Below, piece by piece: positions 25,803 to 51,600 of a DNA stretch of 54,139 nt. Below the pieces are notes generated by a model that saw nothing but the letters and a program-made list of their open reading frames with translations, ran no database searches and was not told where the DNA came from. Numbering within the stretch: the first letter of the stretch is position 1; the number at the start of each line of letters is the position of its first letter. Both the position numbers and the translations under genes were made by a program. Source of the DNA: a virus (taxonomy: Duplodnaviria > Caudoviricetes); the IMG/VR virus record IMGVR_UViG_3300031669_000039, positions 1 through 54,139 of that record, one strand, 5' to 3'.

Positions 25803-25830
25803 TCGCAGAAATTACATACTATATAATGAA
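25803..25830 (+). promoter_or_regulatory. Conserved phage promoter motif, copy 2
   Basis: tcgc agaaatt aca tacta tataat gaa. Confidence 0.8.
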
Positions 25831-25915
25831 AGAGATGGTTAGTTGAAAATAGTAGACTAAACGCAGATGAGCATGAGCTATGCGCTCAATAATAGGCATT
25901 CTGTACATCTCTTTT
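25829..25915 (+). ncRNA. Putative structured small RNA 1 (self-closing stem)
   Basis: Perfect 9-bp closing stem aaagagatg/catctcttt; internal arms ttagt/actaa, gcaga/tctgt, tgagc/gctca; no RBS-led ORF. Confidence 0.6.
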
Positions 25916-25975
25916 ATATATTTCGCTAAACTTACAAAGCATATTTTAAAAATTTTTGAAAGGGGGATTATCATT

Positions 25976-26314
25976 ATGAATGATAATACATTTAAATCTA
26001 TTATAAAGGAACAACTGAAACGTTGTACAGATATTCTGACACATAAAACGATGGAGTATGCTACGAACGATAGATTACATAATTTTAAAGTAGCTGCGGC
26101 ATTACAACTTACCACACCAAAGAATGCTCTAGCAGGTATGTTAGCAAAACACACAGTATCTATTTATGACATGTGTAGATCTAATAATACCTATTCAATA
26201 GAGAAGTGGGAGGAAAAGATTACTGATCATATGAATTATCTTATTTTACTTCTGGCTATTATTAAAGAGGCTAAAATCAATGATGAGTCCGCTATTAATA
26301 ATGGTGATTGGTGA
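25976..26314 (+). CDS. Putative all-alpha nucleotide-modification-associated (MazG-like) protein
   Basis: K..EYA..DRLHNFK.AA...AKH..SI.D...W.EKI.D..NYL.LL pattern; family assignment from memory. Confidence 0.5.
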   Translation: MNDNTFKSIIKEQLKRCTDILTHKTMEYATNDRLHNFKVAAALQLTTPKNALAGMLAKHTVSIYDMCRSNNTYSIEKWEEKITDHMNYLILLLAIIKEAKINDESAINNGDW

Positions 26315-26339
26315 GATAATTGAAAAAATTTAAAATTAA

Positions 26340-26368
26340 TCGCGAATAAAACATATGCTCTAATAGAA
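26340..26368 (+). promoter_or_regulatory. Conserved phage promoter motif, copy 3
   Basis: tcgc gaataaa aca tatgc tctaat agaa. Confidence 0.75.
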
Positions 26369-26393
26369 ATCATATTTTGAAAGGGGAATCATT

Positions 26394-26588
26394 ATGAAAC
26401 TTACAGATATAATTGTATCGGTAATAATTAAGAGAGGAATTATTTATGAGGCTCGGAATGTAAATGTGGAATTTACAATTCCAAATATAAAGACGGACCA
26501 AATAGATTTAAGTCAGCTTAAAGGAGTAAAGATACAATTCAAAGCAGATCATATGATACTCAAAATTGATAAAGAAGGAGGAGCTTAG
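26394..26588 (+). CDS. Hypothetical cassette protein
   Basis: GAAAGGGG RBS; own promoter and terminator. Confidence 0.7.
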   Translation: MKLTDIIVSVIIKRGIIYEARNVNVEFTIPNIKTDQIDLSQLKGVKIQFKADHMILKIDKEGGA

Positions 26589-49713: not shown

Positions 49714-49726
49714 AAGGAGTAAGGAA

Positions 49727-50233
49727 ATGATTAAAAATAATATTGTTATTGAGGACGCTCGCATAGGTTTTCGTAATTTTAGTGGAAAAGAAGGAAAATT
49801 TAATCCAGTAGGAAGACGCAATTTTTGTGTTTTCTTAGAAGAAGACCTTGCAAAAACATTGGAGAATGATGGATGGAATGTTCGTTGGCTCAAACCTCGG
49901 GATGAACAAGAGGCAGAGCAAGGATATTTACAAGTAGCCGTTAGTTTTGATAATATTCCTCCAAAAATCACTATGATTACAAGTAGAGGGAAGACAATTC
50001 TTGATGATGAATCGGTTAGTATTTTGGATTGGGCGGAGATTTCTGAAATTGATCTTATTATCCGTCCATACAATTGGGCTATACAAGAAGGCACTAAAAA
50101 TGAAAAAAGAGGTGTCAAAGCATATGTAAAATCAATGTATATTACCATTGTCGAAGATGAATTTGAAAAGAAATATTATGATGTTCCTGATAGTGCTTCT
50201 GATTCTATAGGTGGTTGTAGTGAACAGGAATAG
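49727..50233 (+). CDS. Single-stranded DNA-binding protein
   Basis: FRNFSG....FN..G.RNF, D..I.PY.W......GVKAY, acidic tail; position after the polymerase. Confidence 0.65.
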   Translation: MIKNNIVIEDARIGFRNFSGKEGKFNPVGRRNFCVFLEEDLAKTLENDGWNVRWLKPRDEQEAEQGYLQVAVSFDNIPPKITMITSRGKTILDDESVSILDWAEISEIDLIIRPYNWAIQEGTKNEKRGVKAYVKSMYITIVEDEFEKKYYDVPDSASDSIGGCSEQE

Positions 50234-50292
50234 ATAATATTTGGCTGTGCTATCGGCTAAACGGGTATTTTGAAAGGAGGCGATGCAGTTCA

Positions 50293-51516
50293 ATGGCAAT
50301 AAATTTATATGAACATCAAAGAGATGCTGTCGAAAAACTTAAAAATGGAAATATATTGGTTGGAGGCGTCGGCTCCGGTAAATCGAGAGCCGCCCTTGCT
50401 TATTTTTTTATAAAAGAATGTGAAGGTAAGATCAAAACAAATAGTGAGGGTGGTTATTCTCCTATGAAGAAACCAAAAGATTTATACATCATTACAACTG
50501 CTAGGAAACGTGATACGCTTGAATGGGAACAGGAATGTGCTCCATTTTTACTTTCTACAAAAAAAGAGAATAGTATAGGCGGGGTAAGCGTATTTGTTGA
50601 TTCTTGGAATAATATCAGTAAGTATGCTCATATTAAAAATGCTTTTTTCATTCTAGACGAACAAAGAGTTATAGGAAATGGTACATGGGTAAAATCATTT
50701 CTCAGAATTACACAAAGTAATAATTGGATTTTATTAAGCGCTACGCCAGGAGATACTTGGATGGATTATATCCCAGTTTTCATAGCAAACAAGTGGTATA
50801 AGAATCGAACAGAGTTTATTCGGCGACATGTTATTTATAGTAACTTTACAAAATATCCAAAGATAGAACGTTATATTGAAGTTGGAAAACTTATTCGTTT
50901 TCGTGATGCTGTTATTGTTAATATGCATTATAAAAAACACACAATAGCTCACGATAGATCAATTCAAGTAGGTTTTGATCGAGAACTTTTTAATACTGTT
51001 ATGATTAAACGTTGGAATGTTTATGAGCAACGACCGATTAAAGATGTTTGTGAACTTTGCTATCTTATGCGTAAAGTTGTTAATAGTGACCCAAGAAGAA
51101 TAGATACAGTAAGCCAACTTCTTGAAAAACATTCTAAGATTATAGCATTTTACAATTTTAATTATGAAAGAGATTTACTTCTTCAATTAGGAGAAAAGCT
51201 AAAAATTCCTATTGCGCAATGGAACGGACATAAACATGAGCTTATACCTGATACGGAAAATTGGTTATATATTGTTCAATATGCGGCTGGAGCAGAAGCA
51301 TGGAATTGTATTGAAACAGATACTATAATATTTTATTCACAAAATTACTCGTATAAAGCAACCGTTCAAGCAGCAGGCCGTATCGATAGATTAAATACAC
51401 CATTTACAAATCTTTATTATTACTATCTTCGTTCTACATCTGTTATTGACCTAGCAATTCAAAAATCGTTTAATAATAAAAGGGATTTCAATGAGCATCG
51501 TTTCATGACTATTTAA
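50293..51516 (+). CDS. SF2 (SNF2-like) DNA helicase
   Basis: LYEHQ, GGVGSGKS, ILDEQ, LSATP, QA.GRIDR motifs. Confidence 0.88.
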   Translation: MAINLYEHQRDAVEKLKNGNILVGGVGSGKSRAALAYFFIKECEGKIKTNSEGGYSPMKKPKDLYIITTARKRDTLEWEQECAPFLLSTKKENSIGGVSVFVDSWNNISKYAHIKNAFFILDEQRVIGNGTWVKSFLRITQSNNWILLSATPGDTWMDYIPVFIANKWYKNRTEFIRRHVIYSNFTKYPKIERYIEVGKLIRFRDAVIVNMHYKKHTIAHDRSIQVGFDRELFNTVMIKRWNVYEQRPIKDVCELCYLMRKVVNSDPRRIDTVSQLLEKHSKIIAFYNFNYERDLLLQLGEKLKIPIAQWNGHKHELIPDTENWLYIVQYAAGAEAWNCIETDTIIFYSQNYSYKATVQAAGRIDRLNTPFTNLYYYYLRSTSVIDLAIQKSFNNKRDFNEHRFMTI

Positions 51517-51523
51517 ATTTTTC

Positions 51524-51552
51524 TCGCGTGAAAAACATAGACTCTAATAGAA
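51524..51552 (+). promoter_or_regulatory. Conserved phage promoter motif, copy 12
   Basis: tcgc gtgaaaa aca tagac tctaat agaa, followed by short hairpin ggagt/actct plus T-tract (51550-51582). Confidence 0.75.
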
Positions 51553-51600
51553 GAGGAGTAGAAAACCACTCTTTTTATTTTTAGAAAGGAGGCTGTTCAG

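Follow-up and report, generated by a model that had tools for sequence, protein, structure and literature searches.

Promoter-linked RNA cassettes with covarying closing helices in phages carrying a two-barrel RNA polymerase

The 54,139-bp contig of a virus of the class Caudoviricetes (IMG/VR record IMGVR_UViG_3300031669_000039), the whole of which is referred to here as the window, has a G+C content of approximately 35% and carries every gene on one strand. At six sites in the window, a 25-nt promoter is immediately followed by the 5′ arm of a helix that closes the predicted RNA, and the 3′ arm is followed by a U-tract. These sites, designated cassettes 1–6 (Table 1), are probably units of the two-barrel RNA polymerase of the phage, in which the start bases of the transcript would serve as one arm of a terminator around exchangeable cargo.

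In the proposed mechanism, the promoter ends at the start site, and the first transcribed bases (G or A, followed by AAGAG-like purines) would form the 5′ strand of the helix. A CUCUU-like 3′ strand directly before the U-tract would complete a hairpin-plus-U-tract terminator made from the two ends of the RNA. The empty cassettes (3 and 6) would act as attenuators: the hairpin leader that they produce, about 30 nt long, would stop a fraction of the transcripts, and cassette 6 would damp the transcription by the polymerase of its own gene. At a loaded cassette, termination would free a closed RNA of 70–105 nt with both ends base-paired, and read-through would supply the downstream gene where no new promoter comes after. 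The inserts appear to be exchangeable. Cassette 5 and no fewer than 11 relatives would hold tRNA look-alikes whose anticodon loop has collapsed, cassette 2 a conserved RNA about 95 nt long, and cassettes 1 and 4 orphans.

Promoter family and closing helix

A near-identity search against 50,697 phage records gave no match to the contig, a ligase-based search for related loci confirmed none, and the exact promoter pattern retrieved 0 stretches from IMG/VR. The 1320-aa primase-polymerase of the contig has thousands of relatives, and an alignment of this protein led to 513 IMG/VR stretches, from which 80 loci were retained (related loci are designated by L numbers). Clade counts refer to the window plus 85 loci, namely these 80 and five stretches of 16–20 kb from the nearest relatives, and homologs of the cassettes were searched with nhmmer in 207 loci. 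The cultured relative examined was Arthrobacter phage Gordon of cluster AU (NC_041952.1; L221).

The promoter has the form TCGC-N15-TATAAT at cassettes 1–5 and carries the variant hexamer TCTAAT at cassette 6. A weight matrix gave 11 matches on the plus strand of the window and 0 on the minus strand, and the cassette 6 site, whose TCTAAT variant is kept in relatives, was found with a second matrix. The same strand bias was observed in the relatives, with 210 matches on the gene strand versus 0 on the opposite strand (80 loci with G+C contents of 30–57%), and in phage Gordon, with 9 versus 0. Promoters of cassettes and plain promoters scored alike (22.3 and 22.8, respectively; p = 0.42). All promoter-bearing phages examined carry the polymerase gene, and this co-occurrence, together with the strand bias, suggests that the two-barrel polymerase is the most likely reader of TCGC-N15-TATAAT, a connection that the initial annotation of the cassettes had not made. 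The best sigma-70-type matches on the gene strand (11/12) were located at 23091–23118 and 41300–41327, and may be entry points for the host polymerase.

The initial annotation had described six promoter copies directly before purine starts, with a (C/T)T(C/T)TTTT run and an AT-rich tail downstream, and the description held at all six sites: the promoter is immediately followed by GAAGAG, GAAAGAG, or AGAAGAG, and a CTCTTT-type C/T-rich run with a T-rich tail lies further 3′. Its coordinates pointed to the right sites, but 25829 and 39423 lie one base inside the helix and 51550 lies one base past the hexamer; we place the first RNA bases at 25828, 27705, 30293, 39124, 39422, and 51549.

In the minimum-energy folds, an outer helix of 7–15 bp closes each of the six RNAs. 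The 62 outer-helix pairs comprise 36 A-U, 14 G-C, and 12 G-U pairs; the earlier statement that the stems differ in sequence yet stay paired held, whereas the statement that they do so largely through G-U pairs was overstated. The z-scores of the whole folds relative to dinucleotide shuffles were modest (−1.37 to −3.80, with 1–24 of 200 shuffles folding as well; cassette 4, z = −3.80, 1 of 200), and the energy of the whole fold alone is therefore weak evidence. The arms themselves were more informative when they were exchanged between cassettes. In the window, cognate arms paired with a mean energy of −9.85 kcal/mol versus −6.62 kcal/mol for swapped arms, and 3 of 720 permutations reached the cognate value. 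For 48 distinct cassettes of the clade, the corresponding values were −13.13 and −7.49 kcal/mol, and none of 5000 permutations reached the cognate value; the outcome was the same when only the inner parts of the arms were used (0/5000).

The relatives contain 133 promoters with leaders of 10–44 nt and 87 with leaders of at least 45 nt. A cassette was called when the first 14 nt formed a duplex of −8 kcal/mol or lower with a downstream site and a T-rich tail came right after that site, and this rule passed 49 of the 87 long leaders and 3 of the 133 short-leader controls. Over the clade set, cassettes were found at 73 of 288 promoters. The earlier proposal that a common scaffold of promoter, closing helix, and U-tract holds unrelated cargo was supported. 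By size, the cassettes of the relatives include 33 short (up to 46 nt) and 34 long ones. These results indicate that the closing helix is under selection for pairing.

The initial annotation had also called for an Rfam search. The cassettes matched no family at the gathering threshold in the window, and relaxed E-values gave chance-level matches only. A CsrC-like match at 33479–33698 (23.5 bits; gathering score, 61), which overlaps a small open reading frame (ORF) and a terminator, was taken as chance, as were SpF41-like and other weak matches below the gathering score.

Predicted transcription start and termination

In all 222 promoters, a purine directly follows the hexamer. A script flagged 19 short leaders, 3 of them artefacts on inspection by eye, in which a Shine-Dalgarno motif starts 3–6 nt past the hexamer and the start codon lies, at a normal distance, 13–19 nt past it; a start 6–8 nt downstream of the hexamer would delete this motif. 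Base 1 is the first base of the closing helix in 31 of 48 cassettes, and pairing ends at the hexamer boundary. In an ungapped extension of the helix from an inner anchor, bases 1–6 formed Watson-Crick pairs with the cognate partner in 294 of 420 cells (70%), as compared with 50.2% (standard deviation, 2.3) for swapped partners, and 0 of 2000 permutations reached the cognate value. Based on the purine rule, the early Shine-Dalgarno motif, the helix at base 1, and the covarying bases 1–6, we infer that transcription starts at the base right after TATAAT. Such a placement would resemble T7/SP6-type promoters more than a sigma-70 −10 element.

A T-run of at least five bases precedes the ribosome-binding site (RBS) in 53 of 81 hairpin leaders and in 4 of 107 plain leaders. 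The T-run is thus coupled to the hairpin leaders, indicating that the U-tract goes with the hairpin rather than with the RBS context. All six cassettes have a hairpin with an immediate U-tract, as in intrinsic terminators; the compact G+C-rich stem and small loop of such terminators are missing, with 14 G-C pairs in the 62, and four of the six enclose a branched cargo of 40–90 nt.

Terminators at gene ends in the window (Table 1) share the build of the cassettes, namely a purine-rich 5′ arm, a CTCTT 3′ arm, and a T-run, and the next promoter follows within a few bases. Their 5′ arms are Shine-Dalgarno-like (GGAGG or AGAGG), and their 3′ arms read CCTCTT. The common arms may reflect a sequence preference in termination by the phage polymerase.

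The surroundings of the cassettes suggest two kinds of use. Among the 73 cassettes of the clade, 61 are followed by an RBS and a gene with no new promoter, 5 by a promoter within 45 nt, and 7 by other contexts. Most cassettes therefore look like leaky terminators that would also feed downstream genes, not only like sources of stand-alone RNAs. On the other hand, some cassettes are followed by the next promoter within about 10 nt, as for stand-alone RNA genes, and L084, L147, and phage Gordon contain arrays in which promoter, RNA, U-tract, and promoter come in succession. The arrangement of some units thus fits the panel of small RNAs that had been proposed for the window, whereas the majority, which lie directly before a gene, would also serve in the control or feeding of that gene. 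In the window, a separate terminator lies just upstream of each of cassettes 1 and 2. A weaker promoter-like copy (25923–25947; 16.8 bits) lies 7 nt after cassette 1, whereas the degenerate promoter copy after cassette 2 was recognized by eye only, the script having classed this cassette as gene-followed. The repeat region of phage Gordon holds its 9 gene-strand promoter matches, with three cassettes in an unannotated gap. This gap, between gp37 and gp38 (31,503–31,858 of the record), has a promoter before each of the three; one of them has a T-arm-like hairpin, and a short core motif of another recurs in cassette 2 of the window.

Several observations weigh against the proposed role of the cassettes as terminator-closed units of the phage polymerase. 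The position of 61 of the 73 directly before a gene means that a purely cis role would be enough for most of them. The closing duplexes are rich in A-U pairs and of low stability (−6 to −13 kcal/mol), and the swapped, non-cognate duplexes still reach −7.5 kcal/mol, since a purine start and a pyrimidine flank pair without selection. In the cargo cassettes, the closing helix shuts a multi-branch loop, which is unusual for efficient terminators. Cassettes 1 and 2 do not stand out by their whole-fold z-scores, and nhmmer found no homolog of cassettes 1 and 4 in the 207 loci. TATAAT is also a host-type −10 element, which would allow use by the host polymerase. Finally, the YonO paper suggests that conserved domains of multisubunit polymerases such as the flap, which are missing from the minimal enzyme, serve in hairpin-dependent pausing and termination (PMC5467207).

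Cargo, empty cassettes, and the polymerase

Cassette 2 has three homologs, in L082, L084, and L147, so that the family has four known members. In the four-sequence alignment, 99% of the cells of a five-helix structure are paired. The initial annotation had proposed that covariation be sought in the segments of related phages, and it was found here: 5 of 26 pairs are changed on both sides (closing helix, two; inner helix P2, three), a level reached by 0 of 500 shuffles and with no such changes in slid controls, in an alignment of only four sequences. One hairpin retains its GNRA loop through three variants. The mean column identity is about 87%, and the polymerase-primase proteins of the same phages are about 75% identical. 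Rfam gave only chance-level matches to cassette 2. A search of IMG/VR with a 14-nt core of the cassette hit at least 120 stretches, nearly all by chance, and added one new member, L147; a longer gapped pattern retrieved no members beyond those already known from either IMG/VR or a metagenome collection. These results indicate that cassette 2 represents a conserved RNA family with compensatory changes.

The predicted RNA of cassette 5 has a 4-nt loop capping the anticodon stem and no CCA. Its homolog in L004 (nhmmer, E = 2e-11) matches the tRNA model of Rfam (RF00005) at 51.4 bits, with 4 nt where the model has the 7-nt anticodon loop, and differs from cassette 5 by a compensatory change in the anticodon stem; both copies are syntenic, upstream of the ortholog of the gene at 40134–41078. 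Cassette 5 itself gave no RF00005 match at E-values up to 10 in a 161-nt scan and none across the whole record, and ARAGORN found 0 tRNAs in the window. Look-alikes of other relatives score 37–48 bits. Of the five nearest records, four have cassettes containing a match above the gathering score, and so does L033; among 50 other records, 9 gave further tRNA matches, some of which are ordinary tRNAs outside cassettes. All 12 cassette-borne copies inspected by eye (the window and 11 relatives) have an anticodon loop of 4–6 nt, an extended hairpin, or a loop of 7 nt without U33, the last being seen in L025. The copy in the window is the most degenerate of the family. A G3-U70 wobble pair was noticed by eye in the acceptor stem of two look-alikes, including the window copy. 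Judging from its fold and its homologs, cassette 5 is a degenerate tRNA look-alike.

The other two cargo cassettes have neighbors as follows. The gene after cassette 1 has its true start at about 25977, with a PHROG match from residue 33, and cassette 4 is followed by an RBS and a 51-codon ORF (39233–39388).

The window contains two DUF6353 paralogs (31077–31922 and 40134–41078). What the relatives have at the syntenic sites before these paralogs varies between other cargo, a tRNA look-alike, and an empty hairpin, which indicates that the DUF6353-upstream site is a hot spot of cargo exchange. Both DUF6353 paralog lineages have, in the relatives, a cassette immediately before the gene, and its cargo is unrelated in the 9 cases found. 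The conserved ligand core before orthologous genes that marks a riboswitch was not found, the cargo before DUF6353 being unrelated or absent and without an Rfam match.

Cassettes 3 and 6 hold no cargo. Cassette 3 opens a 198-nt leader before a gene at 30491–31030 and the DUF6353 paralog at 31077–31922, and at this site the ortholog of the latter is immediately preceded by cargo cassettes in relatives. No homolog of the leader was found by nhmmer in the 207 loci. The remainder of the leader (30330–30490) contains a three-codon mini-ORF behind a strong RBS (about 30356–30376) and a stable hairpin of at least 12 bp (about 30403–30449) with no Rfam match.

Cassette 6 precedes an operon of an endonuclease, an exonuclease, and the RNA polymerase. 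An endonuclease homolog is present in 73 of 81 sources, and the leader shows a promoter match of at least 12 bits in 59 of the 73. A helix that starts within 5 nt of the start together with a T-rich 3′ flank was found in 54 of the 73; a stricter earlier rule passed 32 of the 73, because the U-tract is partly paired. Phage Gordon has a hairpin leader of this type, too, before gp86–gp88, gp88 being the homolog of the polymerase. MAFFT and RNAalifold applied to 33 of these leaders gave 0 pairs, since hairpins of unequal length do not align, and arm-swapping was used instead. The initial annotation had counted the empty units among its small RNA cassettes; their hairpins were recovered in the folds, and both units are better read as putative leader attenuators.

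The record ends within the polymerase gene. Full-length relatives have about 890 aa, and that of L047 (16682–19366) has an E = 0 match to phrog_4291 ('RNA-dependent RNA polymerase') and a weak one to the Pfam RNA-dependent RNA polymerase family (RdRP). Several helix-turn-helix segments (Pfam HTH) are present at both ends of the protein. An AlphaFold model had a mean predicted local distance difference test (pLDDT) score of 74.9, and its best PDB matches in Foldseek were QDE-1 (E = 2e-7; probability, 1.00; template modeling (TM) score only 0.27–0.30) and gp64, gp62, and gp96, two-barrel polymerases of Thermus phages of the P23-45 type. Sequence searches of the PDB with the protein found no polymerase. 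The protein has both the DxDGD loop and the double-psi beta-barrel fold of two-barrel polymerases. A total of 250 GenBank phage records contain the gene, at or near the end of the gene order. Being located behind a promoter of its own type, it would need first molecules from the virion or from host transcription, and a leaky stop at cassette 6 would damp self-amplification.

Table 1. Positions of the promoters, predicted cassette RNAs, and other features
Feature	Position	Strand	Description
Promoter, cassette 1	25803–25827	+	Position-weight scan, 31.7 bits
Promoter, cassette 2	27680–27704	+	37.3 bits
Promoter, cassette 3	30268–30292	+	41.7 bits
Promoter, cassette 4	39099–39123	+	40.7 bits
Promoter, cassette 5	39397–39421	+	39.2 bits
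Promoter, cassette 6	51524–51548	+	TCTAAT variant; 23.0 bits, second matrix
Cassette 1 RNA	25828–25922	+	10-bp closing helix, multi-arm cargo of ~68 nt, U-rich tail; z = −1.68
Cassette 2 RNA	27705–27812	+	7-bp closing helix, inner P2, GNRA-capped hairpin, two more hairpins, U-tract
Cassette 3	30293–30329	+	Empty 10-bp hairpin, 7-nt loop, U7 tract; z = −2.91
Cassette 4 RNA	39124–39202	+	15-bp closing helix, cargo of ~40 nt with one hairpin, U-rich tail
Cassette 5 RNA	39422–39506	+	Cloverleaf minimum-energy fold; acceptor stem runs to the 5′ end, U-tract after it
Cassette 6	51549–51582	+	Empty 9-bp hairpin and U-tract
Cassette 2 homolog	L082:15157–15263
Cassette 2 homolog	L084:15661–15765
Cassette 2 homolog	L147:7261–7364	−
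tRNA look-alike	L004:5363–5443
tRNA look-alike	L033:2577–2660
tRNA look-alike	L010:16227–16328
tRNA look-alike	L025:3365–3448
tRNA look-alike	L083:12988	reverse
tRNA look-alikes	L210–L220
Plain promoter	25425–25449	+	RBS and gene directly after, no cassette
Plain promoter	27431–27455	+	RBS and gene directly after, no cassette
Plain promoter	33389–33413	+	RBS and gene directly after, no cassette
Plain promoter	33698–33722	+	RBS and gene directly after, no cassette
Gene-end terminator	25760–25797	+	Terminator scan
Gene-end terminator	26569–26612		Terminator scan
Gene-end terminator	27401–27430		Terminator scan
Gene-end terminator	27651–27679		Terminator scan
Gene-end terminator	33654–33693		Terminator scan
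Gene-end terminator	34024–34051		Terminator scan
Endonuclease	51601–51921	+	Operon behind cassette 6; PHROGs
Exonuclease	51866–52420	+	Operon behind cassette 6; PHROGs
Two-barrel RNA polymerase	52426–54138	+	Operon behind cassette 6; PHROGs; N-terminal 571 residues, cut by the record end; GADFDGD motif

Alternative explanations and comparison with known systems

The interpretation of the cassettes as terminator-closed units of the phage polymerase could be extended to their function. The scaffold might belong to a supercluster of phages of Actinobacteria and Firmicutes that encodes the two-barrel polymerase, with different structured RNAs swapped into it in the course of evolution. These RNAs, chiefly anticodon-less tRNA mimics, might be released with protected ends and act in trans on host proteins for tRNA handling, RNA decay, or defence, while the empty form might autoregulate the polymerase operon. 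We propose this extension tentatively and do not regard it as probable.

An explanation that is possible, if on the unlikely side, is that the cassettes are purely cis-acting leaders, serving as 5′ stem-loops that shield mRNAs against 5′-end-dependent decay, as constitutive attenuators, or, when tRNA-shaped, as cutting signals by which host RNase P and RNase Z would trim the message at its 5′ end. The predominance of cassettes directly before an RBS and a gene is consistent with this, as are the conservation of cassette 6 as the leader of one operon and the lack of conservation of cargo at syntenic sites, which is expected if only the closed shape matters. In addition, RNase P RNA cleaves M. 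smegmatis YrlA with an acceptor-like stem of 7 bp, according to PMC4201824. However, a stabilizer alone needs no U-tract, whereas the U-tract is coupled to the hairpin; units lying between a terminator and a promoter (cassettes 1 and 2 and those of L084, L147, and Gordon) need no read-through; and the column identity and compensatory pairs of cassette 2 are maintained across phages.

It seems doubtful that the closed RNAs have the decoy function suggested in the initial annotation and act in trans by blocking host RNA-binding defence or tRNA-handling proteins. The recurrent tRNA-shaped cargo keeps its D- and T-arms and has lost the normal anticodon loop in 12 of 12 copies, which fits mimicry and not decoding, and the bacterial Y RNAs, closed RNAs with a tRNA-like module, offer a precedent (PMC4201824). 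On the other hand, a search for a TROVE/Ro gene gave 0 matches in the record while its controls were positive, the window copy is the most degenerate of the look-alikes, and the empty cassettes cannot serve as such decoys.

It is improbable that the cassettes combine a host-polymerase promoter with an embedded terminator, in which case the TCGC part would be an activator site, the RNA would start 6–8 nt downstream inside the 5′ arm, and the helix would stop upstream transcripts only. TATAAT is the host consensus, a helix with a U-tract would insulate neighboring units, and covarying bases 1–6 are also expected, since upstream transcripts contain them. Nevertheless, such a start would lose the Shine-Dalgarno motif located 3–6 nt past the hexamer, and the base after the hexamer is invariably a purine, with the helix boundary exactly there. 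Moreover, the upstream half of the motif is kept at 30–57% G+C, from Firmicutes-like to Actinobacteria hosts, together with the phage polymerase gene, and a separate terminator is already present immediately before each of cassettes 1 and 2.

A DNA-level recombination boundary, as the Giantsbane preprint reads a 32-bp intergenic repeat (10.1101/2020.01.10.891226), or a chance pairing of purine starts with T-rich tails, as the −7.5 kcal/mol of non-cognate arms might suggest, is hardly credible given the strict strand specificity (210 versus 0), the fixed position of the promoter before the RBS, the advantage of cognate arms over permutations (window, 3/720; clade, 0/5000; bases 1–6, 0/2000), the G-U pairs, which work in the sense RNA only, and the compensatory changes in cassette 2.

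In the accessible portions of the literature searched (including PMC5467207, PMC10770324, 10.1101/842583, PMC5513430, 10.1101/2020.01.10.891226, and PMC4201824), the promoter, start, terminator, and cassettes are not described. From the sequence, 10.1101/842583 had already proposed the polymerase protein considered here as the putative RNA polymerase of a supercluster of phages of Actinobacteria and Firmicutes, and the words promoter and terminator are absent from its text. The 32-bp intergenic repeat mentioned above belongs to cluster AU. The text of a catalogue of phage RNA candidates (PMC10690425), as far as searched, is without the cassettes, although its supplementary tables may list some of the RNAs. 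YonO of the SPbeta prophage and gp64 of Thermus phage P23-45 are single-chain two-barrel polymerases with promoter motifs of their own, which differ from TCGC-N15-TATAAT, and closed RNA cassettes are not described in the accessible text of either report (PMC5467207 and PMC10770324).

The analysis yields a promoter consensus with a predicted +1 position for the two-barrel polymerase of a large phage group, a candidate termination signal for a minimal enzyme of this kind, and a set of predicted small RNAs that includes tRNA mimics without normal anticodon loops. Because the same architecture is present in cultured soil phages such as Gordon, these predictions can be tested at the bench, and a self-contained unit for expressing end-paired RNAs with an orthogonal polymerase could also be of use as a tool.

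Promoters of the T7/SP6 type have TATA-like bases at the start site and a purine-rich initial transcript, which can form a hairpin from +1, as in the T7 gene 10 leader. The cassette promoter likewise ends TATA-like at the predicted start, with a purine-rich start and a hairpin at base +1. The differences are the two-barrel enzyme in place of a single-subunit one, the U-tract after the hairpin, and the possible cargo of 40–90 nt.

Phage lambda makes short RNAs from a promoter with a nearby terminator, namely the 6S RNA of PR′-tR′ and the oop RNA, and the genes downstream of 6S need read-through. The cassettes share with them a promoter placed closely before an intrinsic-type terminator and a short RNA, here a predicted one. 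They differ in being present in many copies per genome, in that the 5′ end of the RNA itself would form the terminator stem, and in the polymerase. No Q-like antiterminator turned up in the window, where no search aimed at one was made.

The species 1 and 2 RNAs of phage T4 (rnaC and rnaD) are stable, non-decoding, tRNA-related RNAs cut from a tRNA precursor made by the host polymerase. Cassettes of the cassette 5 type would also give phage-encoded, non-decoding, tRNA-related RNAs, although each unit has a phage-type promoter and a U-tract of its own.

In Y RNAs, the 5′ and 3′ ends pair into a stem. YrlA-type Y RNAs are about 100 nt long and have a tRNA-like module without decoding capacity (PMC4201824). 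The fold of cassette 5 and the alignment of its L004 homolog have both the end-paired stem and the tRNA-like module, and no match to the Y RNA or YrlA families of Rfam was found in the window. What sets cassette 5 apart from the Y RNAs is that its tRNA-like acceptor stem is itself the closing helix and would double as the terminator stem.

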